This document shows positions 23,027 through 41,634 of a stretch of DNA of 54,933 bases, piece after piece. Numbering within the stretch: the first letter of the stretch is position 1; each line of letters starts with the position of its first letter. Both the position numbers and the translations under genes were made by a program. Where the stretch lies: sequence record SRR22947725_4822. One strand, 5' to 3'. A model generated the notes under the pieces. That model did no database searches and was not told the origin of the DNA. It saw only the letters and a list, made by a program, of their open reading frames with translations.

Positions 23027-23044
23027 TGGGTTTAAAAAAGAAAC

Positions 23045-23225: not shown

Positions 23226-23272
23226 ATCACGCCACAGACCCTCGACTTCCGCCATTACAAATCCAGACTGGA

Positions 23273-23441: not shown

Positions 23442-23595
23442 TGCTCCAGACTGACTTTTCAAGTGGTTCAGTTATTGTAACCACGAACCATTGATTTCGA
23501 TCACCCCGCATTGAGTCATTCTTTATGCGAAGGTCATTTTGATGAGATTAAATTGAAGTCGTAAAGTCTCCAAGTGGTCTATTTTCGTCGTGTCA

Positions 23596-23832: not shown

Positions 23833-24643
23833 AAAACCGTAACGCGTCGTTAGTTCATTTCGATCCAACTATCTTTGATCATCTAATAAATCTCAAGCCT
23901 GCCTGGTTTATTTTTTTCGTTTACATTGCCATGTGTATCTGAACAGCGATTCTGGTTTGACTCAGGACCTTCTTTTTTCAGACCTTGGCAAAACAGCCAA
24001 AGGCATTTGCAACTTGTTTGGTCATGTCCTTTTCATACGCTAGCTCATTGAGCAAGAGGCCCCCGAATCACCCTCCTGCAACAACCCGATAAAGTGTGAG
24101 GACAAACCATGAATCGCTGATCAATGACATTTTTTTACGCTGCCTTTTCTCCCAAGGCAGCTACCATCGGGACTTACTGCAAATCATCAAGGGGTTACTT
24201 AAATATGCAGTAATTCTGTCATGGGTAGACTAGGCTTTGGCGATCTACACTTCACCAGAAGTTTTACCGGCCTCAACGAGTTCCTTGGCTTGTCTTCTAG
24301 TGATTAGACAAATCTGCACATTTTTAGTCTGATTGTTATCGACTTGGTTCATTGTCAATCCAGGCAGTGCGGGGCCCGAGGATCTTACCTTTATAACCAC
24401 TGGTGGCACTGCAGTCTTGGTGTCTTGCGTCAACACGGCAATCTACCAAGGCAAAGCCGTGACCTCCATAGGAGGGCAGTCCCTTCACTTCTGTGTCGAT
24501 CTCACCAGTTTCGTATGTAACTCAAGTGATACCAGCATTGGGATTTATGCATTTCACAACTTCATTGCACTGGCTTCAGTCACGATTACCGATGTGGATG
24601 CTGGATATTTCCAGCGGTGCGTTTGCGCTCTGCACCAAGCTGT

Positions 24644-25363
24644 CTATTCTTCCAATGGTGAAGGAGCATTTCTCCATTGGTCGGTGGCTGCCCATAGATT
24701 TTCAGGGCTTAACGACTCCCCGTATTTCAAAAAGCGAACACTTCCATCAGCAAATGCAAAGTTGGATCCTCCATCCCGAGATGTATCACCGGAAGCATTG
24801 TGTTTATTTTGATCGATCGCTTCTACATCGTTTCCATCTCCTTGATAAAAATCCATATGCACATCATACCGTTCCTGTTTTTTTTCACCGAACATGATTG
24901 TTTCGGAAGGAAAACGGACACTGGACAATTTCATGGGTTTGGAACCTGTCCATTCCCTGAATTCCTCAAACTCTTTTTTGGATAAGGTGATTGCAAAAAA
25001 ATCATTGAAGCCATTGATGATATAGCTCCTTTTTTGGGTTTCTTCTGCTTTAAAACGATCGGAGGGGCAGATCACTATCTCTGGATTATTATGATAGGGA
25101 AGCAGCGCACTGATCCAATTGGGCCCTCCTGAAATCCGTGGAGGAATCTTATTATCGAAATCATCAGCATACATGCTCAAAGCCAAATTAATCTGGCGCA
25201 AATTACTGCTGCATTTGACTTGTTGGGCCTTTCCCTTGGCTTTCGACAATACCGGTAGAAGCATTCCAGCCAGAATGGCAATAATCGCAATGACTACTAA
25301 TAACTCAATGAGCGTAAAAGCACGTAACAGCCTCTTTTGGGTTTTCTTATTCATTTCCAGCAT
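24644..25363 (-). CDS. Prepilin-type N-methylation protein with DUF1559-like domain and H-X9-DG-type C-terminus
   Basis: [45 protein letters not shown]...[11 protein letters not shown]. Confidence 0.92.
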
Positions 25364-25552
25364 GTTGAATAATAAGTAAAATGAGGTTTCTTTTTCTGAC
25401 GGTGAAACACCTACGTCATTCTTGCGCTTGCTGACATATTACACCCTGTTTTGTAATTAAAGCAAATTGCATTATGGTCTCAAGTATTGTAACCAACTTT
25501 GATACCGATCATGCACACTGACTAGATGAAATAGAGGGAGACGAATGCCGTC

Positions 25553-28500
25553 ATGTTTAAAATTTTGATAAATAATCTAATCACTGGCATTCGTCTGCTT
25601 CTCCTGTCCATGTGTTGTGCCGGCGTCACATTTCTTTACGAGGAAGTATTGACGGCTGAGCTCAACCGAACGGACGGAATACAATTCAATGAAATTCTAG
25701 CCTCAAATCTAACTGGATTAAAAGATGCGGACGGCGATACAAGTGATTGGTTGGAGATAGAAAATATCAAATCTCAACCTGTAAATTTGTCCGGCTACTC
25801 TCTGACAGACAATGCGAGCGTTCGCAGGAAATGGGCCTTACCAGATCTGGATATTCCTCCTGGAGGATTCCTTTCGTTCTGGATGTCAGGCAAGGATTCC
25901 AATCAAAGTGAATTATCAGATTCGAACCCTTTGCGTAAAACTTCTCCCTTCTCAGTGCACACAAATTTCAAGTTAAAGAAAAAAGGAGGAAGCCTATTTC
26001 TCATTAATCCAGCTGGCGACACCATCGATGAAATTCACTATCCCAGACAATACTCCGATCATTCATTTGCTCGCTCAACTGATCCGACGAGAAAATGGGG
26101 GTTTTATTTGATCCCAACCCCCGGAAAAGCGAACGAGGGCAGGCCTCTGAAACAGTTCGTAAAAGAGCCCTCCTTTTCCCCTTTGCCGAGTGTTGTCTAC
26201 GACGAGGTAGAAGTTCATCTCAACGTCAAATCCATCGAAACTGTAGAGCTTCGTTATACGACAGATGGGAGTCATCCAACTGGAAGCAGCTTGCTGTATG
26301 ATCACGCAATCAGGATCACCAAGTCGAAGACCATTCGTGTTGCTGCATATATCGGGCAAGAACGTGTGAGCCCTATTGCTACTGGTACTTACTTGATTAA
26401 GCCAGAACCCCAGTTGCCATCCCTTTCGATCACCTTACCCCCGGCTGATTTCAAGGAAGTTCACATGAACAGTCAGGCCAGCGGACGAAAAAGTGAGCGG
26501 CAGGCTTATTGGGAATATTTCAATAAATCAGGCAAACGCATCGAAGCGACTGGATTTGGGCTCCGACTCCATGGCGGAGCGGGACGCAATGGGGGTTTAC
26601 ATACGAAAAAATCCTACCGTGCCTACTTTCGTAGCTCATATGGTCAAAGTCGATTGAATGGAAATATCATTCCCGATGCTTCTGTAAAAGCTTTTGACAA
26701 GCTCGTACTACGTGCCAGTTCCAACGATCGAGCACCCCACGGATCCAGTATTCGAGATCAAGTTATTCGCGACCTCCACCTTGAAATGGGTGGAGTTGGT
26801 GCTCACGGTTCCTGGTGTGTGCTGTATGTCAATGGTGTGAATCGAGGGATTTACAATGTAACAGAACGGATGGATCAAAGCTTTTTGTCCTCACAACTGG
26901 GGGAAGGTCAATTTGACGTTATCAAGACAGGGGAGACAGTGCTTAATGGCAACAAGCGAGCGTGGGATCAACTTAACCATTTTTTACGCACAACACAATT
27001 CTCCGATGCTGCAAATTATGAAGAACTCAAAAGACGGGTGGATGTCGAAAATTTCACTTCCTACGTGATCCTCAATCTGTGCATGCAGAATTTTGATTGG
27101 CCGCATAATAATTGGTATGCTGCTCGGCGTATACCAGATGGCAAGTGGATCTTCATGTGCTGGGATGCCGAATGGGGGCTGGGTTACCGGCATCCGCATT
27201 CCGGGGACGCCCCAATCGGTATCGACCTGGATCCTTATGCCTTCATGGATAGTGGAGGTGCATACGGGCATGGATTGATCAGGACTTTATTTCTGGCCCT
27301 GCTCAATAACGAAGCTTATCGAAAATATTATCAGCAAGAAGTAACACGATATTTGAAAGAGTCATTATCGACCGAGAATATCCTGCGTCTCATACGGTAT
27401 CATCGAGACGCGCTTGAAACTGAAATGAAGAAGGAGTACGAGGCCAAAGGAACTCGAATCAAACGATGGCATGATCAAATTCATCAGATAGAGGTTTTCA
27501 CCAAAAAGTGCACCACATATTTCAAGCGCTACACCGATGAGTATTTTGAACCTGTGATTCAATTCAACGAAAACAAACGCCTCGCACTAGTTGAATCTGC
27601 AAATGGTAAAAGGTATGTTTTTTATCGCGGAGACAACGGTCAAATATGTCATTTTTCTTCCACTATGAAGAGCAAGTCTTGGCTGGAAACTGCCGTTTAC
27701 TTACCCAAAGGGGCTCCTTCAATTGCTGGAAATCCAGCTGCCTATTCTCTGGCTTCTGGAAAGCTGATTGTAGTTTATCGTGGCAGAGATGGAGATCTGC
27801 ATGAACTCACAGCCTACATGCAAGAGCAGGGACTCAGCCAGTGGTCATATTCAAATCTGAGTAGAAGTTTAACGCTTCCACCTGCCATTAACGATCCAAC
27901 CGTTATTGTCGCAGATGGCACACCTCATATTTTTTATCTGGATAAAAATCTCCAACCCCAGGAACTCTGGTTGAATAGTGTCTGGCATCATCATCCATTA
28001 CCAGTAACGCCTCGTCCCGGCGGTGATATCACTGCCACAGCAACTGCTGATGGCATTTACGTTACATATCGAACAGTTTTTGGAGCACCCTGCACTCAGC
28101 GTCTCGCAAGGAAAGATCAGAGGGAGGGCAAACGCTCCTGGCAGCATGAACTGGTGCTGCAAGTTCCGTCAGCAGGAACGCCAGCGGGCTTAATGGCTGA
28201 TGGGAAATGGCGAGTCATTTTTAGACCAGCCAAGGCCTGGCCCCTTCGTCAACCATACGTATTTCATTGGGATGGCCCCCAGGGTAAAGGTTATCAGGAA
28301 TACAAAGGTTCACGCGCCGGGCTTATCGAAGCTCGAAAACAGCGACGTCGATTTTGCCAGTTGCAACCGATTATATCCCCCTCAGGTCATGCCACAGGTA
28401 GCCCAATTATCCTCAGCAACCCGCACCAAAACCGACACTTCGTCACCTACCGTGATTCAATGGGGCATTTGCAAGAAGCATATTTAAGCCAAGACCACAA

Positions 28501-28690
28501 CTCAGAGGAATGGCAGATAGAGGATATAGTGTATCTTTCGAATGCACCTGCAGCAATGAGTGATCCGGTTGGGATGGCTGCACCGACTGGGAATCGACGC
28601 TATTATATTTATTGGGGTGTAGACAAAAAACTTCACGAATTACACTTTGACGGGCGTTGGAATCATATCTCATTGCACACAACCGATTGA
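25553..28690 (+). CDS. Secreted CotH-family kinase: lamin-tail + Fn3/chitobiase-like + CotH + C-terminal lectin-like beta-propeller
   Basis: FNEILASN..DWLEI (LTD), PTPG..N, RYTTDGSHP, LRLHGG..KKSY, NFDWPHNNW, WDAE; propeller repeats after ~27578. Confidence 0.88.
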   Translation: MFKILINNLITGIRLLLLSMCCAGVTFLYEEVLTAELNRTDGIQFNEILASNLTGLKDADGDTSDWLEIENIKSQPVNLSGYSLTDNASVRRKWALPDLDIPPGGFLSFWMSGKDSNQSELSDSNPLRKTSPFSVHTNFKLKKKGGSLFLINPAGDTIDEIHYPRQYSDHSFARSTDPTRKWGFYLIPTPGKANEGRPLKQFVKEPSFSPLPSVVYDEVEVHLNVKSIETVELRYTTDGSHPTGSSLLYDHAIRITKSKTIRVAAYIGQERVSPIATGTYLIKPEPQLPSLSITLPPADFKEVHMNSQASGRKSERQAYWEYFNKSGKRIEATGFGLRLHGGAGRNGGLHTKKSYRAYFRSSYGQSRLNGNIIPDASVKAFDKLVLRASSNDRAPHGSSIRDQVIRDLHLEMGGVGAHGSWCVLYVNGVNRGIYNVTERMDQSFLSSQLGEGQFDVIKTGETVLNGNKRAWDQLNHFLRTTQFSDAANYEELKRRVDVENFTSYVILNLCMQNFDWPHNNWYAARRIPDGKWIFMCWDAEWGLGYRHPHSGDAPIGIDLDPYAFMDSGGAYGHGLIRTLFLALLNNEAYRKYYQQEVTRYLKESLSTENILRLIRYHRDALETEMKKEYEAKGTRIKRWHDQIHQIEVFTKKCTTYFKRYTDEYFEPVIQFNENKRLALVESANGKRYVFYRGDNGQICHFSSTMKSKSWLETAVYLPKGAPSIAGNPAAYSLASGKLIVVYRGRDGDLHELTAYMQEQGLSQWSYSNLSRSLTLPPAINDPTVIVADGTPHIFYLDKNLQPQELWLNSVWHHHPLPVTPRPGGDITATATADGIYVTYRTVFGAPCTQRLARKDQREGKRSWQHELVLQVPSAGTPAGLMADGKWRVIFRPAKAWPLRQPYVFHWDGPQGKGYQEYKGSRAGLIEARKQRRRFCQLQPIISPSGHATGSPIILSNPHQNRHFVTYRDSMGHLQEAYLSQDHNSEEWQIEDIVYLSNAPAAMSDPVGMAAPTGNRRYYIYWGVDKKLHELHFDGRWNHISLHTTD

Positions 28691-29107
28691 CGTCTCATGG
28701 TCAGTCAAACTCTCAATGTCAGAGGCCACTTTCCTGGTTTTGACAAACTCCCTGTAGCGCTTTGCCTGGTATTGTTATTCTAACTGCCCACTATCAGGGG
28801 AGGGTTTTTTAGCGTATTCATGCCGAGCAAAATATTTACATAACCACTCCGGAACTACCGACAAGGCTGACGAGGTGAACCGGTTTCAGGTTTAGTGAAA
28901 ATGATTGGATGTTTGCGGAAACATTAAATAGTGAAATCCGATGTCCTACATGACGTGAATCATCCAACTTCATGCACAAATTGGTATGTCTAAATGAGGA
29001 GCACTCTCTAATTCAATATCTGCTGTCTTTCGTATACGATTTACAATACTTTTTAGAACCAAAAACAGAGATGAAAACCCTGCACAGACGCAAACTGCCT
29101 TCAAATG

Positions 29108-30277
29108 TTATTGATTGACCTTGAAACGGCCAAGGTGAATATGATTTGAGTCCGTCCAGCTTACCCACACATGGCCTCCACTAAAAATACTGCGAGGCAT
29201 GCCGCTGGAAAAACCAGCATCGATCTTGCAGAGGATTTCCTGGCGCCTGACGTTTCCATTCGGGGAAACCTCTGCCACGCGAAGAACAGTCTGCTTTTTC
29301 TCCTTCCCAATCCAAATGGTATAAATCGCGTCTTTGGTGCAGACAGTTGAACAGCGACCTATTGGAGCATTCTTGTCAAGCACGAGATCCTTCCTCAAAT
29401 CTGATTGCCCTTGTTTGTAAATTTGCAGAATTACCTGCGGTTTACCCTGTATGACCGTGAATCGACTTATTGCAACCAGATCGCCGCTGCTGGCGATACT
29501 GGCTCCATTGACCGGGCATCCGGGCATCAGCCAATTGTCCTCTGCAATTTTCTCAGGTGCAGACCAGCCTTGCTCAAGGTCGGTAACGAAGCTGAAATCT
29601 CGTATTTCCTCAGGTGAACGATCTCTGTAAACAACCATTGGGCCGTCAGTAAGTTGAATGGCAGACGTTGGACAACAGGTGCATACATTTTGATCCAGCG
29701 TGCGTTCTTCTTTAATTTCGTTTCCTTCAAGAATCGCCGTGTGCAGCGCCATTTTCCCATTTGGCTTGGTCATCTTTCGTCCATCCAGCCAGAAGGCGCG
29801 CACGTTTGCACCATCGGGGATAAGCGAAACAAAGCCATGTTCCGTCTCGCTTTCATCGTCATGCAGCCAGCCCATTGGGCTCCAGTTTTTACCGCGATCT
29901 GACGAGATCGTAATTCGGATACCGTAGGCATATTGTTTATGGCTGATCCGTTCAAGCCAGTGAGCATAAAGATCTCCGTTGGCTGCCTCGACAATGGACG
30001 GTATGTCCGCCCAGTTCGAAAACATTTTTTCAGACGCTGCAATCAGGTTTTTAATTTCAAAACCCGATCCGTTCCATTCAGTTAAAAAAAACCGCGATTT
30101 TTGTCCTTCGCTGCGATTGATCCATGAAAGAGCAAAATGATCTCCCATCAAACTAAGGTTGGGTGCCATGGCACCACTTCCAGCCGGTATTTCTATTTTC
30201 TTGAAATTCAGGCTATCAGCCCAAGACAATATTGCCGTGTTGGCCATTAATATTCCAATTCTGAGGAGGTATTTCAT
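29108..30277 (-). CDS. Exported BNR/sialidase-like beta-propeller protein with conserved Cys motifs
   Basis: Signal peptide, NWADIPS, Asp-box SSDRGKNWS, EHGF, WLDGR, VCTCCPTS, YRDR, DNW..GCPVNG. Confidence 0.8.
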   Translation of the reverse strand: MKYLLRIGILMANTAILSWADSLNFKKIEIPAGSGAMAPNLSLMGDHFALSWINRSEGQKSRFFLTEWNGSGFEIKNLIAASEKMFSNWADIPSIVEAANGDLYAHWLERISHKQYAYGIRITISSDRGKNWSPMGWLHDDESETEHGFVSLIPDGANVRAFWLDGRKMTKPNGKMALHTAILEGNEIKEERTLDQNVCTCCPTSAIQLTDGPMVVYRDRSPEEIRDFSFVTDLEQGWSAPEKIAEDNWLMPGCPVNGASIASSGDLVAISRFTVIQGKPQVILQIYKQGQSDLRKDLVLDKNAPIGRCSTVCTKDAIYTIWIGKEKKQTVLRVAEVSPNGNVRRQEILCKIDAGFSSGMPRSIFSGGHVWVSWTDSNHIHLGRFKVNQ

Positions 30278-30730
30278 TTCAGTTTAAATTTCAGGTAATA
30301 TGCGCAGCCGTCATCTGCGCTTTGCAATGTCACCGCATTGCATGCCAAAGAAAGACTAAATAGTAGATTATCTTTCCAGTCCTCGATGACTTTCCTTGAA
30401 TCCGTATGATTTGCTTTTCTATCTAATTGCACGGTAATAATTAAATATAATAAAATGGGATTTGCAGAGCATCATGCTTGCTTTGTTGTGCCCAAGTCGT
30501 TGGAGATTTCTTTTGGCAAGCTTTCTATGAAAGTAAATATGTTCATAATGCATATTTCACGTGATTTACAAATTTAAATTGTCTTGACCATAGCTTGTCT
30601 GGGGCATTAGCTAAAAGACAGACTTCGTCTCTTTCAGTGTGATATAGTGCTGCGGTCAGAGTCAATTCACTGACTTTTACGTTTTGTATCACCAGCAACC
30701 TTGAGTGACGAAGTGCATAAATACAAGACT

Positions 30731-33700
30731 ATGAATCGATTAACAAAAATACGACTGAAGACTACTTGTCTGGCGCTTTTGATGGCCATGACAGGTAGTA
30801 TTGCTCAAGCACAATTGAGCGATGTTACCCAACCGGGTGATACAATCGTTGCAACTTCGGATAACAGCCCAGGCTCTGAAGGAGTGACCAATGCGATCGA
30901 TAATGCAGATACAAAGTATCTCAACTTCGATATCAACGATACCGGACTTACGGTAACCCCATCTGTAGGGCTCACCGTTGTGAGTGGTCTAGCCCTGACG
31001 TCCGCTAATGACGGACCCGACCGTGATCCTACAACGTTCCTTTTGGAAGGTTCATATGACGGTGCTAATTTCATGGAAATAGCTTCTGGTGACGTGGCTG
31101 ATTTCCCTGAGAGGTTTTACACCAATCATCTATTTTTCGACAATGACACCCCCTATGCCACCTATCGCTTGATTTTCCCTACTGTGGATGACAGCACCTG
31201 TTGTATGCAGATCGCTGAAATCGAGTTCCTGGGTGTTCAGGCACCGGGAGATGTGACTCAACCCGGAGATGCTATTGTTGCCACCTCTGACAACAGCCCC
31301 GGTTCTGAAGGTGTGACAAACGCCATCGACAATGCCGATACCAAGTATCTGAACTTTGACATTTCTGATACTGGATTTGTGGTGACCCCATCCGTAGGGA
31401 TGACTGTCGTCAACGGTCTTTCTTTGAAATCGGCCAATGATGGTCCGGATCGTGACCCCACTACCTTTTCATTCGAAGGATCCTATGACGGTGTCAATTT
31501 CGCTGAAATCGCCTCTGGCGATGTGGCTGATTTCCCAACTCGTTTTCATACGAATTACTTGTTTTTCGACAACACGACTCCTTACCTCTCATACCGAGTG
31601 ATTTTCCCTACAGTGGATGACAGTACCTGCTGTATGCAGATCGCTGAAGTCGAGTTGCTGGGATCTCAAGCTCCTGGAGACGTTACTCAGCCTGGCGACA
31701 TCATAACAGCGACCTCTGACAATAGCCCGGGTTCTGAAGGTGTGACCAATGCGATCGACAATGCAGACACCAAGTATCTCAACTTTGATATCGTCAGTAC
31801 AGGTTTCACTGTAAGTCCGTCAGTAGGTTTGACCATTGTCAGCGGTCTTTCTTTGACTTCCGCTAATGACGGTCCTGACCGTGATCCAACTACATTCATG
31901 TTTGAGGGATCTTATGACGGTGTCAATTTTGCTGAAATTGCCTCGGGTGATGTCGCTGACTTCCCAACCCGTTTTCACAAGAACTACTTATACTTTGATA
32001 ATTCGGTTGCCTATTTAACCTATCGTTTGATTTTCCCTACGGTTGATGACAGTACTTGCTGCATGCAGATTGCCGAAGTCGAATTGCTGGGTGTTCAACT
32101 ACCCGGTGATGTCACGCAACCCGGTGATACCATCATCGCTAGTTCGGACAATAGCCCCGGATCAGAGGGTGTGACCAATGCCATTGATAACGCAGATACC
32201 AAGTATCTTAACTTTGATATTTCAGACACCGGTTTGACCGTTACTCCTTCAGTCGGATTGACAGAGGTCATCGGTATGTCCCTCAAATCGGCAAATGATG
32301 GTCCGGATCGTGACCCAACGACCTTCCTCCTTGAAGGTTCCAACGATGGTTCGGCCTTCATGGAAATTGCTTCAGGAGATGTTGCTGACTTCCCTGAAAG
32401 ATTTCATACCAATTACATCTTCTTTGAAAATTCCAATCCATATCAAACTTACCGCCTGACCTTCCCGACGGTTGACGGCAGTACCTGTTGTATGCAGATT
32501 GCTGAAATCGAGCTCTTTCCCAAACCGGGTGGTGCTTGCACAGACTTCAGCTTTGTTAGTTCTGGATTGATCACTCAACAGCCTTCAGACACACCAGCGC
32601 TTGCAGGTTCAACCGCGGAAATCCAAGTGACTCCTTCTGGTCCTTGGAATGTTCAATGGCTCAGAAAGCTTGTTGGAGAAGAAACTGCGGTTGCCATCGA
32701 TGGAGCAACCAGCCCTGTGCTGAGTATTCAGGATGTTTCAGCTGAAATGGACGGCACTGTCTATCAAGCATTGGTTTCAACACCCGGTTGTGAGGCTCAA
32801 CTGAGTCACGAAGTCGTTCTCAATATCTTTGAGCCTTCATCGGATGTCAGTGTTGGATTCACATTCCGTGGCAGTGGTGCGAATGGCGCTCCAACTGAAA
32901 TGTTGACAACTGATATTGCTGGATTCGTACCGCAAGCCTACTGGAATAACTTGAGTGGCGGATCTGGACAGGGAGTTACATACAATCTCGAAAGTGGCGC
33001 AGACGATGGTAGTGCAACTGACAGTAATAACGATGAGACTGAGATTGGTATTGAGTTTGCCACCAACGGTACTTGGGGAGCTGGCACTAGAACTTCCAAT
33101 GGAACAGGTCGCATGTTGAATGGTATCGTAAGAACTGATGCTGCTTCTCTTGATTTGGATGATAGTCCATCTGAAATCGTATTGTATGGGTTGCCCGCTG
33201 GCACTCATTCTTTGATTGTTTACACCGTTCAGGTACCTTTGGAATTCTACACCCTCGATCTTGAAGTAGAAGACTCTAATGGCACTCAGCGCAGGTATCT
33301 TCGTCCTGAAAACTCAGACGAATACAAACCATCTCCAAATTTCCGATTGGTTACTTCTGAAGAGTCTTCAGAAAGATCAGTTGGTAACATGGTTATTTTC
33401 AGAGGTTTGAGTCCTCAGAATGGCGAAGTCACCCTTCGATTTGCTGCGCCAGATGGTAATGGACAAGGCCCTGGTATCAATGGTCTACAAATTCTTTTGA
33501 ACAAGGATTTCGTGCCACCCCCAACCATCAATATGCATCCTGTTTCATCCAATGGCGTCAACGGTAGTGCCTTGGAACTAAGCATCGATGTATCGGGTGC
33601 TGATCAGATTCAGTGGCTCAAGGACGGTCAGGCCATTGCTGGCGCGACCGGTGCGAGTTACAGTATCGGATCCTTGACGGCAGGTGATGCTGGCGCCTAC

Positions 33701-34708
33701 AGCGTTTCTGCAAGTAACGAGGGTGGAAGTATCAGTAGTCAGGCAGCTGTGGTTGACGTTGTTAGTTCCAATAACATCTCAGAAGGTCTCGTTGCTTACT
33801 TCCCATTTGATGGCAATGCCGATAATGCGGTAGACGGTGGCAGTGATGGTGAAGCTCGTAACGGTGCTGGATTCGGATCAGGCCAAATTGGAGATGCACT
33901 TGAACTCGATGGTCAGGATGACTGGGTATTCGTTGCCGATTATACCAAACCAACAGACTCCATGACTGTTTCAGCATGGGTATTGCCTGAAGGTATTGAT
34001 TGGGGTCCAATCGTTCGTAACTGGGTAGACGAAGCTGGTGATGGCCGATTCGGTCAGTTCGTCCTCGATGCTCCGTTTCCTCTGGATGCATTTGAGCCAA
34101 GCCTTCGAGCCAGAATTGGTGTGGGTCCTAACGAACCTACTGCATCCACTGGAATCTCTGATTCAGATCGTGGATCATGGCATCACATCGCGATGTCTGC
34201 CAATGGTAGAGCCGTGACCCTGTATTGGGATGGTCAAGCTGTTGCCAGCCTGGACTACCTGAACAACATTAATGAGCCTCCATTCCCTTGGTTGGCGATT
34301 GGTGCGGATGTCGTTCTTCCAACCAATGAGGATGATGCCCTTGATTTTGCGGGTGATCCTGAAATTCAACAGGATTCGTATCCTTGGGCAGGTAGTATCG
34401 ATGATCTTGCCATCTGGAATCGTAGCTTGAGTGCTCCGGAACTGTTCTCGATCTTCGAGGCAGGTGGAGCAGGCAAAGCTGTGAGTGCTGCAAGTCCTGT
34501 TTTGGATGACTCTCCAGGTGTTGAGCCCTCTGTGGCAGAAATCGCTGGAATCAGTGTTTCCGAAGGTAACATTGTTATCGAATGGACTGGTTCACAGTTG
34601 CTTGAATCGGATTCAGTGACAGGGCCATTTACTCCAATCGGTGGAGCTACACCGCCTTCAACCAGCATCACCATAGAGGCTGGTAACAAGTTCATCATTG
34701 CTGAGTAA
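30731..34708 (+). CDS. Large acidic secreted/surface protein: 4x discoidin/CBM32-like repeat, Ig, PVC-type beta-sandwich, Ig, LamG, C-terminal tail domain
   Basis: Signal peptide ending AQA; SANDGPDRDP repeats; ITQQP..QW Ig; GLVAYFPFDG...IDDLAIWNRSL LamG; start ATG 30731 preferred over TTG 30701. Confidence 0.9.
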   Translation: MNRLTKIRLKTTCLALLMAMTGSIAQAQLSDVTQPGDTIVATSDNSPGSEGVTNAIDNADTKYLNFDINDTGLTVTPSVGLTVVSGLALTSANDGPDRDPTTFLLEGSYDGANFMEIASGDVADFPERFYTNHLFFDNDTPYATYRLIFPTVDDSTCCMQIAEIEFLGVQAPGDVTQPGDAIVATSDNSPGSEGVTNAIDNADTKYLNFDISDTGFVVTPSVGMTVVNGLSLKSANDGPDRDPTTFSFEGSYDGVNFAEIASGDVADFPTRFHTNYLFFDNTTPYLSYRVIFPTVDDSTCCMQIAEVELLGSQAPGDVTQPGDIITATSDNSPGSEGVTNAIDNADTKYLNFDIVSTGFTVSPSVGLTIVSGLSLTSANDGPDRDPTTFMFEGSYDGVNFAEIASGDVADFPTRFHKNYLYFDNSVAYLTYRLIFPTVDDSTCCMQIAEVELLGVQLPGDVTQPGDTIIASSDNSPGSEGVTNAIDNADTKYLNFDISDTGLTVTPSVGLTEVIGMSLKSANDGPDRDPTTFLLEGSNDGSAFMEIASGDVADFPERFHTNYIFFENSNPYQTYRLTFPTVDGSTCCMQIAEIELFPKPGGACTDFSFVSSGLITQQPSDTPALAGSTAEIQVTPSGPWNVQWLRKLVGEETAVAIDGATSPVLSIQDVSAEMDGTVYQALVSTPGCEAQLSHEVVLNIFEPSSDVSVGFTFRGSGANGAPTEMLTTDIAGFVPQAYWNNLSGGSGQGVTYNLESGADDGSATDSNNDETEIGIEFATNGTWGAGTRTSNGTGRMLNGIVRTDAASLDLDDSPSEIVLYGLPAGTHSLIVYTVQVPLEFYTLDLEVEDSNGTQRRYLRPENSDEYKPSPNFRLVTSEESSERSVGNMVIFRGLSPQNGEVTLRFAAPDGNGQGPGINGLQILLNKDFVPPPTINMHPVSSNGVNGSALELSIDVSGADQIQWLKDGQAIAGATGASYSIGSLTAGDAGAYSVSASNEGGSISSQAAVVDVVSSNNISEGLVAYFPFDGNADNAVDGGSDGEARNGAGFGSGQIGDALELDGQDDWVFVADYTKPTDSMTVSAWVLPEGIDWGPIVRNWVDEAGDGRFGQFVLDAPFPLDAFEPSLRARIGVGPNEPTASTGISDSDRGSWHHIAMSANGRAVTLYWDGQAVASLDYLNNINEPPFPWLAIGADVVLPTNEDDALDFAGDPEIQQDSYPWAGSIDDLAIWNRSLSAPELFSIFEAGGAGKAVSAASPVLDDSPGVEPSVAEIAGISVSEGNIVIEWTGSQLLESDSVTGPFTPIGGATPPSTSITIEAGNKFIIAE
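30821..32520 (+). repeat. Four tandem 429-bp (143-codon) intragenic repeats
   Basis: Units start at 30821, 31250, 31679 and 32108 (DVTQPGD...), exactly 429 bp apart. Confidence 0.97.
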
Positions 34709-34736
34709 TTTATTCGCAATCTGAGCAAATTTCACG

Positions 34737-34769
34737 CGGCGCCGAGTGTTGACTCGGCGCCGTTTTTTT
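34737..34769 (+). terminator. Rho-independent terminator
   Basis: CGGCGCCGAGT-GTTG-ACTCGGCGCCG perfect 11-bp stem followed by T7. Confidence 0.9.
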
Positions 34770-34797
34770 ATACCCTATATAGAGTCTTCGTATCGTA

Positions 34798-35595
34798 ATG
34801 CACTATTTTTACTTGATGCCGTTTTTACTGGTTTATTCAGCAGTCTATTGCGCTGCCGCGAGCCCATCTTTGAGCTGGGAGAACGACCACTTGAAAAAAA
34901 AGGTAGGTCATGCTGTTAAATCTGTGCGGTTTATTTTCCCTTTCTCCAATAAAACGAGCAAAACGGTCAGTATTGAAAGTATCGAAGCTTCATGCGGATG
35001 CACCCAAGCAAAGCCACCTGTGCTTCCTTGGCTCATCGAAGCTGGAACACAGCAGGAATTGGAGGTTTTTGTCAATGTGCAGGGCAAGACGGGTGTTTTT
35101 ACAAAGAGCCTTACTGTCGTATCATCCCTCGGTAAAAATGAACTGACCACAACGGTGGAAATTGACAATCCCGTCCTCCGCGAAATGAGCCCAGCTGAAA
35201 GAGAAAGAAATCTATTTCAATCCAAAAAGAATCGACAGGCTATTTTTACAGGTGAATGCGGCACTTGCCATGCTGAACCAACCAAGAACAAATACGGCCC
35301 ATCGCTTTATGAGGCCGCCTGTGGCATATGTCACGATGCCAGCCATCGGGCAAGCATGGTGCCTGACCTCAAAGGCAAGATTAAGTCCGAAAGTGCAGCA
35401 TACTGGCGGCAATGGATTACTCACGGAAAAGAAGGTGGCATTATGCCTGCATTTGCTGCCTCAGAAAAAGGTCCTCTTTCGGGTTCGCAGATTTCCACTC
35501 TTGTTCACTTTCTGGCCAAACCTGAACCCAAAACAAAAAAAAGAAAAGGTGTTATTCGGAGTTTCGGGACTCCGCGTTCTGGCATCAAAAAGTAA
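34798..35595 (+). CDS. Exported DUF1573 domain fused to diheme cytochrome c
   Basis: Signal peptide; F.FSN..IESIEASCGCT (DUF1573); CGTCH (35257-35271) and CGICH (35320-35334); MVPDL, MPAF. Confidence 0.85.
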   Translation: MHYFYLMPFLLVYSAVYCAAASPSLSWENDHLKKKVGHAVKSVRFIFPFSNKTSKTVSIESIEASCGCTQAKPPVLPWLIEAGTQQELEVFVNVQGKTGVFTKSLTVVSSLGKNELTTTVEIDNPVLREMSPAERERNLFQSKKNRQAIFTGECGTCHAEPTKNKYGPSLYEAACGICHDASHRASMVPDLKGKIKSESAAYWRQWITHGKEGGIMPAFAASEKGPLSGSQISTLVHFLAKPEPKTKKRKGVIRSFGTPRSGIKK

Positions 35596-35628
35596 ACGAG
35601 CCTCTGTGACCGTGTATCTTTATACCTC

Positions 35629-38600
35629 ATGTTGCAAAACTCAGAAATATCAAGGAAGCACAATTGTTTTAACCGATATCACTGGCTTGCTGCTTTCATG
35701 ATGAACGGGGCTTTCATTGTTATTTTGTTTTTTGTTGTTCACCTCAGTGCAGAAGCAGCAGAACCAAATAGTCTTAAAACTAAGTTGGTGGTGAAAGAAA
35801 GCACTGGAGTTGGATTTGAACAGGTATCGGCTTTGGCTGCCGGCATAGATTTCACAAATACATTGGGAGAACTCAAGGGGGCTTCCAATCGAGTTTTGTT
35901 CAATGGGGCAGGGGTTGCAGCAGGGGATGTGGATGGGAATGGACACCCTGATTTATTTTTCTGTGGATTGGATACTCCCAACCAATTGTATCTCAATTCA
36001 GGTAACTGGAAGTTTTCACCTAGCAGTATACCTGATTCGATGGCGTTGCCTGGTTTTCCCACTCGCGGTGCCGTGCTGGCTGACTTGAATGGTGATCAAT
36101 CGCTCGACTTGGTTATGACGACAGTCGGAGGTGGTCTTCGCTCGTTCATTAATGATGGTAAAGGTCGCTTCCTTGAAAACACAGTTGAAGCCGGGTTGGA
36201 AGGTCATAGTGGGGGATCCACCATTGCTATGGCAGATATTGACGGTAATGGCTCGATCGATCTTTACGTTGCCAATAACCGTTCTGACGATATTCGTGAT
36301 CGCGGTAGAGTCAACATGAGGCAAGTCAATGGACGTATCATTCCCCCTGATGAACTAAAGGATCGCCTCTTGATACACTCTGGTCAGATTCATGAGTATG
36401 GCGAACCAGATAACCTCTATATCAATGATGGTTCTGGAAAATTTTCCCGAGTTTCCTGGACTGATGGTCGATTTAGAACCTCAGGTAAAGCGTTGTCCGA
36501 AACACCACGCGACTGGGGTTTGACTGCCACATTCAGAGATATCAATGGGGATCATTCACCCGATATTTACGTTTGCAATGATTATTGGACCCCCGACAGG
36601 ATCTGGATCAATGATGGTTCGGGTTCGTTTGATGAATTGTCTGTGGAGCTTCTGAAGACTACTTCCGCCAGCTCCATGGGAGTTGATTTTGCTGATGTGG
36701 ATCTTGATGGTGATCTGGATGGATTCATCGTGGACATGCTCAGCAGAGATTTGCAGGTTAGAAAACGGCAGCAACCAGCTTTTAATCCATTATTCATGGA
36801 ATCCTCTTTGAGTGGCAATCGTCAGCAGGTGATGCACAATACACTGCTTCTTCAGAAATCAGATGGTTCATTTGCTGACGTAGCCTACTTCGCCGGTGTG
36901 GAAGCTTCCGACTGGTCCTGGTCACCTGTTTTCATGGATGTTGATTTGGATGGGTATGCTGACTTATTGATTTCTGCAGGCTACCCCCATGATGTTCAAG
37001 ATTTGGATGCCATTCAGTTGATACAGTCTAAACAGCATTCTTGGGATAGGTTTAAAGATCCTGCTGCGCTGCGAGAGGCTTTTGCCAAGGAGTTGATGGA
37101 GCATTATCGCCTTTATCCCGATCTTGATCTTCCTGTTGTCGCTTATCGAAATTCAGGCAATGGGAAGTTTGAAGATTCCACTGCCGTTTGGGGTACAGAC
37201 ATTCCCGGTATCCATCAGGGATTTGCCACTGCCGATCTGGATGGTGACGGTGATCTGGATCTCATCCTCAATTCACTGAATGCAACTCCTCTGCTTTTAA
37301 AAAACAATGCCTCAAGGCCAAGGATTAAACTACGCTTGCGTGGACAATCATTCAATACGCAGGCGATCGGCGCCAAAGTGTTTCTCAAACAGGAAAATGG
37401 TCCGGACTTGAGCTCGGAAGTGTTTGCTGGAGGACGTTATTTATGCGGCAGCGATACTGAAATTGTTTTTGCAGCAGGTGAAAAACAACAGGACCTGGCT
37501 ATCGAAATCCACTGGCCGCTAGGGGGCTTCTCTCGAATGGGTAATATTCAGCCCAATCACAGCTATGTTGTGGACGAACCGAAAAACAACACAACGATTT
37601 CAAAAAGAGGTTCAGAAGCAATCGAGACCATGGCAGTCCTTTTTGAGGATATATCTGAATCCCTGGCCTTAACATTCAATGAAGCAGACAGTAATGACTT
37701 CTCAAGGCAACCTCTTTTACCCTTTCAACTCAGTCACAGGGGTCCAGGTATTGCCATAGGTGATCTGAATCAGGATGGTTGGGATGATATTTGGATTGGA
37801 TCTGGTCGTGGAGGCCAACTTCGAACTTTCTTTGGCAATGGAGAGGACTCCCCGAGACTCGAGAAATGGCCTGTTCCATTACCCGATGATTCCATGGGGC
37901 TTTTGATGGGATACCTGATAGGGAAACCAGAACTGAATCTTATTGGTCTCGCAGGGTACGAACAAGTGGTTCCTTCAGGACTCGTAACCGGAAAAAGTGA
38001 CGGATTGGATTGGAAATCAGTAGACGCTTCCATTCCAGGTGCTGGCCCCATGGCACTCGGACCGCTTAATGGGCGTGGAGAGCTTTCACTCTTCCTGGCC
38101 GGTGGAATCAAACCAGGCCATTATCCGGCGGTTCACCCCTCCACTTTGATGGCCTTGCGTAATGGTCTCTTCACAACTGATAAAAGAAACAACACCCTGA
38201 TGGGCGGTTTGAGTATGGTGAAGGGTGTTGTCTGGAGTGATCTCAATAATGATGGTTTTCCCGAGTTAATTGTCGGAACTGAATGGGGCCCTGTCAGGGT
38301 TTTCGAAAACCGATCGGGTTCATTGTTTGATGTAACCGAGCCATGGGGGCTTGCTGGATTCAAGGGGTTATGGAATGGGATCGCAACGGCTGACCTGGAT
38401 GGCAATGGTTATCCTGATATCATAGCAGGAAACTGGGGGCTCAACAGCTCTTGGCGCGCAACTAACTCACATCCTTTTCGACTTTTTCATGGCACTTTTT
38501 CAAATCCCGCAGTGACCGATTTGATCGAAACCGAATACCAGTTTGATCTAGAAATGACTCCATCGCGGATGTTGGACGAACTTGGTTTAAGCTTGCCGTT

Positions 38601-39348
38601 CATTTATCAAAATATTCGTCACTACAAGGATTACAGTGAAGCCTCACTTCAGAAATTGACAGGTAAAAGATTTCCCCTAGGACGGATTTCCGAAGCCACT
38701 ACCTTTTCCAGCATGGTATTCTTCAATGAGGGTCCGGGACGTGTTTTCAGAGCAAAAGAACTTCCCGCCGAAGCCCAGTGGGCGCCCGTATACGGTGTGC
38801 AAGCGGCCGATTTCAATGGAGATGGTTTTGAAGACTTAATTCTCTGCCAGAACCAAAGCAGGACGAGGCCTGGTTGGTCTAGGCAGGATAATGGTGGTGC
38901 GCTCCTGCTTCAAGGGGACGGCAAGGGCGGTCTGCGGGTGTTGTCTTCCATGGAATCGGGTCTACAGGTGAGCGGTGATTTACGAAGTGCTGCCCTTGGA
39001 GATATCAACAAGGATGGGCGGACGGATCTAGGTTTGACACTTAATAAGGGGCCTTTGAAGATCTATTTCAACCAATCTTCAAATTCAGGACTGCGGGTTC
39101 GACTTCATGGGCCAGCGCACAATCCAGCAGGGGTAGGGTGTCAACTCAGACTTCATGGGGAGAACAATGTCTGGGGGCCGGTAAGAGAGATACAAGCTGG
39201 CAATGGATGGTTTTCCCAGAACAGTCCAGTCACAGTGTTGCATTCCTCATTCAAGGCGACAGGTATTTGGGTGCGTTGGCCAGGAGGTGCTGAGACGCTT
39301 ACTCCTTTAGGTCAAAAGAAAGAAATAACCCTGTCCTGGAAGCCTTAA
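35629..39348 (+). CDS. FG-GAP/VCBS-repeat protein with two ASPIC/UnbV domains (CRTAC1-like)
   Basis: Many DxDGDGxxD Ca-binding loops; NTQAIGAKV...IHWP mid-protein and NPAGVG..VRWPGG at the C-terminus; start may be ATG 35698/35701. Confidence 0.9.
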   Translation: MLQNSEISRKHNCFNRYHWLAAFMMNGAFIVILFFVVHLSAEAAEPNSLKTKLVVKESTGVGFEQVSALAAGIDFTNTLGELKGASNRVLFNGAGVAAGDVDGNGHPDLFFCGLDTPNQLYLNSGNWKFSPSSIPDSMALPGFPTRGAVLADLNGDQSLDLVMTTVGGGLRSFINDGKGRFLENTVEAGLEGHSGGSTIAMADIDGNGSIDLYVANNRSDDIRDRGRVNMRQVNGRIIPPDELKDRLLIHSGQIHEYGEPDNLYINDGSGKFSRVSWTDGRFRTSGKALSETPRDWGLTATFRDINGDHSPDIYVCNDYWTPDRIWINDGSGSFDELSVELLKTTSASSMGVDFADVDLDGDLDGFIVDMLSRDLQVRKRQQPAFNPLFMESSLSGNRQQVMHNTLLLQKSDGSFADVAYFAGVEASDWSWSPVFMDVDLDGYADLLISAGYPHDVQDLDAIQLIQSKQHSWDRFKDPAALREAFAKELMEHYRLYPDLDLPVVAYRNSGNGKFEDSTAVWGTDIPGIHQGFATADLDGDGDLDLILNSLNATPLLLKNNASRPRIKLRLRGQSFNTQAIGAKVFLKQENGPDLSSEVFAGGRYLCGSDTEIVFAAGEKQQDLAIEIHWPLGGFSRMGNIQPNHSYVVDEPKNNTTISKRGSEAIETMAVLFEDISESLALTFNEADSNDFSRQPLLPFQLSHRGPGIAIGDLNQDGWDDIWIGSGRGGQLRTFFGNGEDSPRLEKWPVPLPDDSMGLLMGYLIGKPELNLIGLAGYEQVVPSGLVTGKSDGLDWKSVDASIPGAGPMALGPLNGRGELSLFLAGGIKPGHYPAVHPSTLMALRNGLFTTDKRNNTLMGGLSMVKGVVWSDLNNDGFPELIVGTEWGPVRVFENRSGSLFDVTEPWGLAGFKGLWNGIATADLDGNGYPDIIAGNWGLNSSWRATNSHPFRLFHGTFSNPAVTDLIETEYQFDLEMTPSRMLDELGLSLPFIYQNIRHYKDYSEASLQKLTGKRFPLGRISEATTFSSMVFFNEGPGRVFRAKELPAEAQWAPVYGVQAADFNGDGFEDLILCQNQSRTRPGWSRQDNGGALLLQGDGKGGLRVLSSMESGLQVSGDLRSAALGDINKDGRTDLGLTLNKGPLKIYFNQSSNSGLRVRLHGPAHNPAGVGCQLRLHGENNVWGPVREIQAGNGWFSQNSPVTVLHSSFKATGIWVRWPGGAETLTPLGQKKEITLSWKP

Positions 39349-39584
39349 AAACGAAGCTTCCCAAGACGCAGGGAAATCCCTCATTGATTCTACTGAGACG
39401 AACCTCAAGTGTTAAGAGAATGCAATATTCACCGGGCAAGTTCAGGGCTCTCAATGCCTGTGAACTTCCTTTCTCCAATCATCTTTTCCTACTTCTCACC
39501 AATGTAATTTAGTTACCAGCTCTGCAGTGATCGGGTGCATTCGGGCTGATGACTCCTGTTCACATATTACCTTTGATTCAACCT

Positions 39585-39612
39585 TTGACAGGGAAGGTGA
39601 TCGCTCTAACCT
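39585..39612 (+). promoter_or_regulatory. Putative sigma70-type promoter
   Basis: TTGACA-N16-TAACCT upstream of the PQQ-propeller gene. Confidence 0.35.
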
Positions 39613-39715
39613 TTGCTTTCATTTTGAATCATTCAATCTGGAATAAAGATCGCAAGGCTGGGTAAAAGTGTATTCAACCCTGTTGACATGGTAATGACAT
39701 GTGACATGTTTCCGA

Positions 39716-41041
39716 ATGCTCGGAAAATCAGTCGCCTTTTTATTGCTCACATTCATCGTTCTTGCTCGGGGCGATTCTCAACAAGAATGGCCCCAGTTTC
39801 GAGGCCCCGAGGGTAGCGGCGTAACCCAGTCGTCCCTTGCCATGATTTGGTCTGATTCCAAGAATATGGAATGGTCTTCCAGCATTCCCGGGGCTGGATG
39901 GTCTTCTCCTGTAGTTTCCAATGGGAGAATTTGGCTTACAACTGCCGTTCATGAAGGTCAAAAACGACCCTTAGGTTTTCAGGCGGGAGCTCGTTCCATG
40001 GGAACTTTCCGAAAGGACGCCAATAATTTGAAAATGACCGAGTTCAGAGTCCTTTGCCTGAACTTGGATTCAGGAAAGACTTTATGGAGCGCAACCCCAT
40101 CGAAAGCTATCCCTGCATTTGGCATACATCCATCCAACACATATGCCACGGAATCCCCGGTTACTGATGGTGAGCATGTCTTTGTATATTTCGCCGCAGC
40201 AGGTGAAGTCAGTTGCCTGGATCGTGATGGTAAGGTGCTCTGGAAAACGGCGACTGGTAAGTATGGTTTCGGAAAGGGTTTCGGCAGCGGGAGCGGTCTG
40301 GCCATTTCCGACGACTTGATTTTTGTTCAGTGTGACAATGATGACTCATCCTACGTGCTTGCACTGGACAGAGTCACTGGCGAAGAAAGATGGAAAAAGG
40401 ACCGTGATACGCGCACCAGCTGGAGCACACCTTTGGTTTGGAAATCTGGATATGGATCTCACTTGGTGCTTGCAGGCGCGGGGCATGTCACTGGTTACAA
40501 TCCTGTCGATGGAGAGCTCCTCTGGAAGCTAAACGGATTCAGTGGCTCCTTTTCTGGTTCCCCTGCCTGGGATGGGGATTACTTGTTTTTTGGCAACAGC
40601 GGCCCACGTAGCACTGGTCCTTTGATTGCAGTCAAGGGAGACGCCTCCGGCGAGTTGACCATGACCCGTAATCAATCCAAAGACTGGGTCATTTGGTCTA
40701 AGTCAGGCGCCGGTCCTGGATTGACATCACCGGTGGCGCATCATGGGCTTCTTTATGTGATCAACGGCAGTGTCCTCAAATGCTATCAGGGATCAACTGG
40801 GAAACGTCTTTATGAGGAAAGACTGCCCGGTGCAGGACGTATGGCCGCTTCTCTTTTGATTGCCGGTGATTACCTTTATGCGCTCGACGAAGATGGCCGC
40901 ACATTTGTCGTAAAAACAGGGCCAGCATTTGAGTGTGTATCGGTCAACAAAATTGATGATCTTTTCTGGTCGACACCTTCTGTAGCTGGAGACCGATTAC
41001 TGCTTCGGGGAGCTGATCGTCTCTACTGCATTAAAGAATAA
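39716..41041 (+). CDS. PQQ-like beta-propeller repeat protein (PVC-expanded BamB-like family)
   Basis: WPQFRGP, GWSSPVV, NTYATESPVTDG, SWSTP, STPS...LYCI; signal peptide; start ATG 39716 or GTG 39701. Confidence 0.9.
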   Translation: MLGKSVAFLLLTFIVLARGDSQQEWPQFRGPEGSGVTQSSLAMIWSDSKNMEWSSSIPGAGWSSPVVSNGRIWLTTAVHEGQKRPLGFQAGARSMGTFRKDANNLKMTEFRVLCLNLDSGKTLWSATPSKAIPAFGIHPSNTYATESPVTDGEHVFVYFAAAGEVSCLDRDGKVLWKTATGKYGFGKGFGSGSGLAISDDLIFVQCDNDDSSYVLALDRVTGEERWKKDRDTRTSWSTPLVWKSGYGSHLVLAGAGHVTGYNPVDGELLWKLNGFSGSFSGSPAWDGDYLFFGNSGPRSTGPLIAVKGDASGELTMTRNQSKDWVIWSKSGAGPGLTSPVAHHGLLYVINGSVLKCYQGSTGKRLYEERLPGAGRMAASLLIAGDYLYALDEDGRTFVVKTGPAFECVSVNKIDDLFWSTPSVAGDRLLLRGADRLYCIKE

Positions 41042-41053
41042 GCATCAGTATTT

Positions 41054-41084
41054 TGCATCGAACAATGTGGCGATGCATCTTTTT
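41054..41084 (+). terminator. Possible terminator after the PQQ-propeller gene
   Basis: TGCATCG-N10-CGATGCA followed by TCTTTTT. Confidence 0.4.
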
Positions 41085-41634
41085 GCCACACACAGCCTCA
41101 CTCCATGCAGGCTTGATCCTTTTTAGTCAGGGAAACACCGCTCACATTCCACTGTCAGTGACACAATAGCTGCCTCAAAATTTATTACAGCCTCCGTCGC
41201 CTTGTTGCACACATCCAATGTGCGCGCTTTTTATCACGCTCATCGTCGTCCTAAGTGGTGGAAATGAGTCAAGGTAATATCAGAATTAGCAAAATAATCA
41301 GAAAGGTGGTTTCATGGTGCGTTTCGTGCACCGTGCAAGATGCTCAGTGAAGGCAGTAACCATAAAACGTATCGGAAACAAGTTGAGTCGTTTGTCATCT
41401 TGGCGTTAGATCTATTTATTCTAACTTTAAAACAACTGCTCCCATGCAAGGACAGCGATAGCCGGGGTATTTATCCATGGCATTCATGGGTAAATTGGAT
41501 AGATCATTTTCTTCAAATAGACTTGGGTGAAGGTACTTTTAAGGGTGGTAACCTGGAAGAAGGATAAACATTTCATGATTTTCTCTCAGGTAATGAGTTG
41601 GTCAGGTTGATCAAACTTAGAAATTGCACTAAAA

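Follow-up and report, generated by a model that had tools for sequence, protein, structure and literature searches.

The window analysed here, a stretch of 54,933 nt from sequence record SRR22947725_4822, contains between positions 24644 and 41041 (about 16 kb) seven consecutive genes, designated g1 to g7, whose open reading frames (ORFs) are as described in an initial annotation of the same DNA. That annotation regarded all seven as a single glycan-recognition assembly. The comparisons presented below suggest that the stretch is probably a mosaic within a marine Pedosphaerales-type verrucomicrobial genome, and that the real unit would be a co-directional pair, g4 and g6. The first appears to encode an exported, multivalent lectin-like protein with four CBM32-like discoidin modules, an Ig and a LamG domain, and a C-terminal domain of about 60 residues (CTD); the second is predicted to encode a double Ca2+ beta-propeller of CRTAC1 type that is either exported or anchored in the membrane. 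Hence the part of the earlier proposal that survives is a conserved secreted unit combining a protein of glycan-binding type with a Ca-binding propeller, while the seven-gene unit does not: beyond near-identical genomes, only g4, g5 and g6 stay neighbours.

Conservation and anatomy of the g4-g6 pair

The proteins encoded by g1 to g7 were each compared with 61 related genomes, among them all 22 genomes available for the family. Matches to g6 are present in 45 of these and matches to g4 in 41; full or near-full relatives of g4 occur in 11, with fragments in G009. A g6-family gene adjoins the g4 relative in seven of these twelve genomes, the remaining five being undecidable at contig ends. Four of the seven (G002, G004, G005 and G006) show the order g4-g5-g6; in the other three (G019, G022 and G031) g6 comes before g4 and there is no g5. 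Only in G004 are all seven genes colinear, with g1 truncated. G006 and G002, which are of the same genus, show 75% identity to the window for g4 and about 50% for g5 and g6, and the surroundings of their g4-g5-g6 group are different: a TPR protein gene and two half-size CRTAC1 genes lie upstream, by a squalene-hopene cyclase gene, and CAP and HsdM genes lie downstream.

A scan of metagenomes with the g4 alignment detected 80 loci, which fall into 57 clusters at a DNA identity of at least 95%; a contig scan with g4 alone added few further loci. Clusters were considered linked if a g6-family hit of more than 100 bits lay no more than 3 kb away in the same orientation, and clearly negative if both flanks were 4 kb or longer and held no nearby g6. 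By these definitions 28 clusters are linked and two clearly negative, the other 27 being too short. In six of the linked clusters, with g4 identities of at least 69%, g6 is downstream and a g5 relative lies between the two genes, and in the other 22, with identities of 39-64%, g6 is upstream. Considering the upstream-type clusters that include at least 1.5 kb of upstream sequence, a g6-family gene is found in 22 and none in six. One lineage (about 40% g4 identity, eight loci) has an N_methyl/DUF1559 gene of 243-244 amino acids (aa) between g6 and g4. The middle gene thus varies, from a cytochrome in the window to a pseudopilin in one lineage and no gene at all in others, but the outer pair persists.

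Pfam annotation covered 36 ORFs of the window, with hits taken at E <= 0.01, and together with NCBIfam it bore out nearly all of the domains initially proposed (Table 1). The fourfold discoidin repeat of g4, whose likely start is the ATG at 30731, is evident both in the protein, as CC motifs that recur every 143 aa (residues 167, 310, 453 and 596), and in the DNA, as self-matches of 72-74% identity at an offset of 429 nt. One of the F5/8C modules aligns to a module of a GH92 mannosidase (PDB 7nsn), and no catalytic domain was found in g4. Its orthologue in G007 carries an extra LamG_3/PA14 C-terminal extension that runs off the contig, and a gene fusing MbnP to a dihaem cytochrome c peroxidase (CCP_MauG) lies upstream of it (L034, G007:C8, 6930-8720).

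The CTD, encoded at about 34520-34705, matches no Pfam family and is conserved even in g4 orthologues of only 42% identity. It is also found at the end of other ORFs, of 480-1400 aa, that adjoin g6 paralogues. Across five genomes, 18 of 44 CTD hits lie within 10 kb of a g6-family (CRTAC1) hit, where 2.4 would be expected under random placement, an excess of about 7.5-fold; the corresponding figures for G006 only are 8 of 19 and 1.2. As paralogous loci and related genomes are not independent, this excess is indicative, and no probability is attached to it.

The propeller repeats of g6 score 225 bits with FG-GAP_3 over eight stretches, with many invariant Asp, Asn and Gly columns, and are accompanied by a UnbV_ASPIC domain (PF07593, 42.5 bits with a cut-off of 23.4) at residues 579-646; a second copy of this domain after the second propeller was not picked up by Pfam. 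An AlphaFold2 model of the N-terminal half (residues 46-660) is beta-rich, with a pLDDT of 91. Its closest solved relative is murine CRTAC1 (9etn_A), to which it is similar both in sequence (E 6e-11) and as the top Foldseek match (E 1.4e-24, TM 0.64/0.71), followed at E-values of about 5e-10 to 1e-9 by integrin alpha headpieces, the fungal lectins PVL and AAL2, and aldos-2-ulose dehydratase. The block of residues at about 314-404 is invariant among 16 long bacterial homologues. Vertebrate CRTAC1 has a C-terminal EGF-like domain; Pfam detected no EGF family in g6. In a tree of 16 g6-family proteins, lectin-linked members are spread over several well-supported clades. Bacterial CRTAC1/ASPIC proteins are broadly distributed across soil and marine phyla and are numerous in the genomes examined, and a literature search found no described function for them. 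The two half-size CRTAC1 genes of G006 (567-596 aa; L027, 1693-6569) are directly upstream of g4-g5-g6 and beside the gene for a TPR protein with a CxxCH motif; in the G002 counterpart of that protein, the motif was not seen in the ORF scan.

Table 1. Features of the locus and its surroundings (positions in the window)
Feature	Position	Strand	Length	Content and basis
tRNA-Ser (GCT)	22549-22641	+		ARAGORN, Rfam
IS3-type transposase orfA remnant	23268-23486		~220 nt	Similarity to related genomes
DUF2835 ORF	23596-23868	-	90 aa	Pfam DUF2835, E 1e-21
g1	24644-25363	-	239 aa	N_methyl, DUF1559, H-X9-DG C-terminal model TIGR04294; prepilin-type
g2	25553-28690	+	1045 aa	LTD, Fn3_assoc/CHB_HEX_C, CotH, C-terminal region of ~390 aa without family
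g3	29108-30277	-	389 aa	Beta-propeller of sialidase / GH145 / PL42 / PLL-lectin type (fold model); invariant CxCC
g4	30701-34708	+	1335 aa	4x F5/8 type C, Ig_3, Laminin_G_3, CTD of ~60 aa; core gene
Terminator-like hairpin	34736-34763	+		12-bp stem, 9 G-C pairs, T run; between g4 and g5; pattern scan, consensus match only
g5	34798-35595	+	265 aa	DUF1573 + Cytochrome_CBB3
g6	35629-39348	+	1239 aa	FG-GAP_3 (8 stretches) + UnbV_ASPIC; tandem CRTAC1-type; core gene
g7	39701-41041	+	446 aa	PQQ_2 (BamB-like) beta-propeller; starts 353 nt past g6
POT peptide transporter	41635-43143	+		Pfam; flank colinear in G004 and G005
Two sulfatases	43176-47425	-		Pfam; flank colinear in G004 and G005

The DUF1573-dihaem cytochrome and transcription

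The product of g5 is predicted to be an exported protein in which DUF1573 (PF07610, 48.9 bits, cut-off 26.1) is fused to a compact class I-like dihaem c-type cytochrome (Cytochrome_CBB3, 35.8 bits, cut-off 27). Cysteine motifs of g5 and g3 are conserved in their homologues: the two CxxCH motifs of g5 (at 154 and 175, a spacing of 21 residues) and its CGC at 66-68, along with Met216-Pro217, are invariant in 18 aligned homologues, as is the CxCC of g3 (C199, C201 and C202) in nine. A sequence search of the PDB with g5 returned nothing.

Matches to g5 are found in 46 of the 61 genomes. The gene is separated from g6 by 34 nt in the window, and by 28-90 nt or an overlap in seven genomes from two genera (G002, G004, G005, G006, G009, G011 and G013). 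Open frames of 1498 and 1512 aa had raised the suspicion of a g5-g6 fusion, which was ruled out by a stop codon between the two genes in G006. Outside these two genera the family is nearly always single-copy, and seven of nine such loci have cysS upstream and/or tmk downstream (CysS in five, Tmk in five), a site that looks housekeeping. Loci of this kind (L016-L018, L020, L021, L025 and L026, in G014, G019, G012, G047, G043, G060 and G007) are distributed across families of the order.

Two further lines of evidence bear on the chemistry of g5. In a review table (PMC9312934), one selenoprotein of the DUF1573 family has UGC at the corresponding motif, which argues for redox chemistry at the CGC. 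Longer relatives include four clusters in which an extracytoplasmic function (ECF) sigma factor, a transmembrane segment and the DUF1573-dihaem module form a single chain (P0001-P0004), suggesting that the module is able to sense redox state in the periplasm, and a lectin/HYR protein of 1869 aa that begins with the same module. DsbB was found in none of the five genomes searched (92-95% complete) and VKOR in two of them; in G014, G012 and G015, which are 92-94% complete and rich in exported Cys proteins, neither was found, DsbA-type proteins not having been searched for. These facts would be compatible with g5 oxidising thiols or sensing redox state, and the role in thiol redox maturation initially assigned to it is a possible one.

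Thirteen sequencing runs on record as RNA contain part of positions 30001-40000. Four of them, selected by their match to this stretch, were aligned to the region. In run X1 all 30 bins of 23001-42500 are covered, and one contig of 961 nt spans the end of g4, the whole of g5 and the start of g6. Runs X6 and X7, from two studies, have long contigs only on g4, extending from 30639 or 30703 to 34520, and in both runs they start at about 30639. Contig depth, which cannot rank genes, is 172 on g4 and 2-6 on pieces of g5 and g6 in X7, and 11-21 and about 3 respectively in X6. Runs X8-X17, with word shares of 0.36-0.41, might contain g4 alone. The region is present in RNA libraries, with g4 assembling as a unit of its own. 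Promoter-like sites in the window are no commoner than chance (19, against 25.3 in shuffles), and an Rfam scan found nothing there besides tRNA.

The hairpin between g4 and g5 and the short gap between g5 and g6, which is maintained in seven genomes, would both suit a different division of the locus, in which g5 and g6 constitute a periplasmic or extracellular redox enzyme, the dihaem cytochrome exchanging electrons with the propeller, and g4 is an independent surface lectin that is transcribed separately. Such an enzyme would also be consistent with the g5-linked g6 proteins forming one supported clade (99/95) in the tree, with the CxxCH-containing TPR protein beside the half-size CRTAC1 genes of G006, and with a CRTAC1-family gene located between HZS-like haem-protein genes that appears in PMC12758564. 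However, g6-g4 without g5 is far more widespread (22 metagenome lineages as well as G019, G022 and G031), CRTAC1-type propellers have no known redox cofactor site, and elsewhere the g5 family is found either in the cysS-tmk interval or in fusions with ECF sigma factors. A redox enzyme of this kind is unlikely, if still a serious contender.

Flanking genes and the variable left end

The remaining genes of the locus are more loosely linked to g4 and g6. The prepilin-type assignment of g1 is supported by three models (PF07963, 29.9 bits; TIGR02532, 26.7 bits with a cut-off of 16.3; TIGR04294, 28.4 bits with a cut-off of 19), and the exported look of the other N-termini is a by-eye call from the sequence. 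Such genes are common, G006 having 91 with N_methyl, and in that genome they show no preference for the core genes: seven lie within 10 kb of g6-family (CRTAC1) hits against 5.7 expected, three within 5 kb against 3.3 expected, and three near CTD proteins against 5.7 expected. Hence, of the co-occurrence proposed in the initial annotation, the pseudopilin is no more frequent near CRTAC1 than chance would predict, while g4 and g6 are neighbours beyond chance. An N_methyl ORF does adjoin a CTD protein in G004:C4. The idea that g1 serves as a dedicated export adaptor is not supported: the gene is absent from G005 and truncated in G004, and no secretin, ATPase, platform protein or prepilin peptidase gene, and so no type II secretion machinery, is present among the Pfam annotations of the window.

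The CotH domain of g2 is well supported (PF08757, 122.6 bits, E 3e-35, profile positions 11-317 of 322). The C-terminal part, described initially as a lectin-like propeller, has no Pfam family and no solved relative in a PDB sequence search, making it the exception among the proposed domains, and the CC of g2 (residue 21) falls within the hydrophobic N-terminus. Matches to g2 occur in 43 of the 61 genomes, with 13 CotH-protein matches in G006. Full-length orthologues (46-50% identity) are at 1.03 Mb in G019, a near-complete genome of two contigs in which g4 and g6 are at 4.60 Mb, and in G022 on a different contig from the pair; a CotH-containing paralogue with 27% identity adjoins g6-g4 in the latter. 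As g2 is also missing from this place in G005, the suggested role as a maturation kinase for the locus is not upheld. Orthologues of g7, which has matches in 44 genomes, are similarly unlinked to g4 and g6: in G019 they lie at 9.12 Mb, and in G022 contig C7 carries them.

Matches to g3 are confined to seven of the 61 genomes. The gene is beside g4 only in the two closest genomes and in two distant metagenome lineages (L102 and L119, 3-4 kb away); in G007, G009 and G011 the orthologues are on contigs other than that of g4, and no orthologue was found in G006 or G002, both of which keep g4-g5-g6. No Pfam or NCBIfam family matches g3, and a single-sequence search of the PDB was empty. An AlphaFold2 model (pLDDT 85) is an all-beta propeller, for which Foldseek finds GH33 sialidases, a PL42 lyase, GH145 enzymes and PLL lectins at TM 0.46-0.63. 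Its Atlas neighbours carry BNR_2, and profile matches in the PDB are weak, with sialidases at E 0.03-1.

The two sulfatases noted initially do lie nearby, beyond a transporter gene. Sulfatase matches number 83 in G006 and 77-138 or more per genome, so that one within about 10 kb would be expected by chance at an estimated one-third of places; judged from copy number only, the sulfatases also look to be neighbours at the expected frequency. These genes, together with g3, g7 and the transporter, are ordinary members of a genome rich in secretome and sulfatase genes, with no obligate linkage. They could otherwise be read as a locus for sulfated-glycan utilisation resembling a polysaccharide utilisation locus (PUL), in which g4 would capture the polymer, g3 and the sulfatases degrade it, and g6 and g7 act as accessory binders. 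The presence of CBM32-like, LamG and sialidase-like folds, the sulfatases and transporter downstream, and the occurrence of sulfatases beside g4 or g6 relatives in G009, G019, G023, G031 and some metagenome loci would be compatible with this. Against it stand the number of sulfatases per genome, the peptide (POT) type of the transporter, and the absence of any glycoside hydrolase, SusC-like TonB receptor, SusD-like protein or regulator from the Pfam annotations of the window. On balance it is very unlikely that the locus works in this way.

The left side of the locus varies between strains. The nearest genome, G001 (contig C14), matches window positions 3001-22645 at 99% and diverges exactly at the 3' end of tRNA-Ser, where a tyrosine-integrase (Phage_integrase) ORF and an excisionase-like HTH_17 ORF follow before the contig ends (L006, G001:C14, 1150-3545). 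This indicates an integrated element in G001 that is absent from the window. G001 has no match to positions 22646-54933 at the thresholds used; as it is 79% complete and the contig ends 2.7 kb past the tRNA, only the break on the tRNA side can be deduced from it, and nothing about the cluster. The approximately 2 kb downstream of tRNA-Ser in the window contain no good ORFs. The insertion sequence (IS) remnant there is 72-78% identical to one to three sites in each related genome, and its copy in G001 overlaps an HTH_Tnp_1 ORF with an rve ORF next to it. G005 (about 94% protein identity) passes from the tRNA to a patch including the DUF2835 ORF and then directly to g3, with window positions 23840-29117, including g1 and g2, missing, whereas G004 (about 95% at the amino-acid level) keeps g2 and lacks 23833-24958, and with it the C-terminal part of g1. 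The DUF2835 ORF is the sole part of the left flank common to both genomes, as blastn patches (L022 and L008). The IS remnant, g1 and g2, together with the DNA leading to them from tRNA-Ser, make up a region that varies between strains.

Several smaller features were also observed at this end. Decayed fragments at 23268-23486 and 24245-24812 are debris of mobile elements and genes. One is a short ORF resembling an HTH/Terminase_5 ORF of G001:C5; another, a BspA-type LRR_5 pseudo-ORF, overlaps the 3' end of g1 on the opposite strand. RNA-library contigs from three runs match 23274-23437 while skipping 86 nt (23316 to 23403); other copies of the element are their probable source. At the extreme left of the window (151-7702) is a BatA-D type 'aerotolerance' operon encoding DUF58, VWA/BatA, VWA, TPR, BatD and TPR proteins.

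If g4 and g6 were not functionally coupled at all, their proximity would have to result from common ancestry and from secretome genes having been duplicated in tandem. Both families are expanded (24 g6-family and 19 CTD matches in G006), and related genomes are not independent. However, the pair survives inversion of its order (g4-x-g6 and g6-x-g4), changes of the middle gene and different flanks, down to the lowest g4 identity of 39%, and the several-fold excess of CTD hits near CRTAC1 genes points the same way, so an absence of coupling seems highly improbable.

As for all seven genes forming one surface assembly, with the pseudopilin as export adaptor and CotH and g5 as maturation factors, the exported look of the products, the gene order in G004, the CotH paralogue of G022, the prepilin-type gene that separates g6 from g4 in a single distant lineage, the N_methyl ORF beside a CTD protein and the g3-like genes of L102 and L119 can be cited in its favour, but it is largely refuted by synteny and hardly credible, given the loss or truncation of g1 and g2 in close relatives, the distant orthologues of g2 and g7, the lack of g3 in G006 and G002, the chance-level placement of prepilin genes, the missing secretion machinery, the distribution of the genes over both strands and the terminator-like hairpin behind g4.

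Proposed role of the pair and comparison with known systems

The pairing of g4 with g6 is, in our assessment, rather probable, while its mode of action can be proposed only tentatively, at somewhat below even chances. The two proteins may act as a glycan-capturing pair at the surface or in the periplasm, the propeller docking or acting with the lectin. In this scheme g4 would bind glycans outside the cytoplasm, and g6 would either recognise the CTD of g4, serving as its dock or anchor, or bind or process the same polymer in a Ca-dependent manner. In the lineage of the window, a copy of the DUF1573(CGC)-dihaem cytochrome would have been placed directly before g6, behind the hairpin that follows g4, and would probably provide the pair with a periplasmic accessory for thiol/haem redox chemistry or for redox sensing. 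A bolder version, which we consider quite unlikely, is that CRTAC1-type propellers of the Verrucomicrobiota are dedicated partners of CTD-marked giant lectin-like proteins, reading the CTD in order to dock, anchor or process them at the cell surface, and that a CGC-dihaem 'thiol-to-haem' protein has been added here, perhaps replacing the DsbB/VKOR step, to mature lectin modules with vicinal cysteines.

Several observations weigh against these proposals. The link between g4 and g6 is one of gene adjacency, as read from the genes alone; adjacency can persist through descent, and related genomes are not independent. The g6 orthologue of G007 is preceded by A2M, a 247-aa ORF and PQQ_2 rather than by g4 and g5, with a different LamG/PA14 protein after it, and the metagenome lineages L094 and L133 have no nearby g6. 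No relative of g5 was seen in the locus in any of the 22 upstream-type lineages, and g5 is situated between the pair only in two genera, so the pair must be able to work without a redox step; the ECF-sigma fusions, moreover, point to sensing over electron transfer. The CC motifs appear dispensable, as the g4 orthologue of G031 (L033, 8879-12868) has no cysteines, all four motifs being replaced (AN-S). Finally, contig depth is no measure of expression rank, and carry-over of DNA in the RNA libraries is possible.

A literature search, which did not cover supplements, found no paper on the g4-g6 pair. If the bolder version above is correct, it would provide the first defined partner for bacterial CRTAC1 proteins and a function for DUF1573. 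A partner that stays adjacent across orders and has a recognisable CTD offers a concrete and cheap entry to the CRTAC1 proteins, and the g5 family gives a second handle, as it is mostly single-copy, order-wide, includes ECF sigma fusions and has an invariant CGC by two haems. The locus also illustrates that neighbouring members of families expanded in the PVC (Planctomycetota, Verrucomicrobiota, Chlamydiota) group, such as pseudopilins, CotH proteins, sulfatases and PQQ-like propellers, can mimic a system.

Parts of the locus resemble known systems to differing degrees. Bacteroidota PULs possibly serve a similar purpose, with glycan-binding modules near sulfatases, but are distinguished by the SusC/SusD pair, glycoside hydrolases and regulators that the window lacks. 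In g1 the N_methyl, DUF1559 and TIGR04294 signatures are the same as those of the H-X9-DG/DUF1559 prepilin-type proteins of Planctomycetota and Verrucomicrobiota; it differs in being strain-variable, and its family is not enriched near the core genes. Multimodular carbohydrate-binding proteins with CBM32/discoidin and LamG modules are like g4, with its four F5/8C modules, LamG_3 and Ig, but the latter combines the lack of a detected catalytic domain with a CTD outside Pfam and a fixed CRTAC1-type neighbourhood. Vertebrate CRTAC1 (murine, PDB 9etn) and g6 each have an FG-GAP Ca-binding propeller followed by ASPIC/UnbV, and both are secreted, or predicted to be so; g6 contains two such units in tandem, has no EGF domain by Pfam, is 16% identical, and is found in a bacterial context with a lectin-like partner. 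The CRTAC1-family gene among HZS-like haem-protein genes (PMC12758564) is paralleled here by a c-type cytochrome gene directly upstream of a CRTAC1-type gene, in an adjacency conserved within the lineage. Unlike membrane penta- or multihaem and TPR cytochromes, g5 would combine DUF1573 with a small dihaem domain in one exported protein, and it is beside g6 in just two genera. The partner of g6 that is conserved more widely is the lectin-like protein and not a cytochrome.

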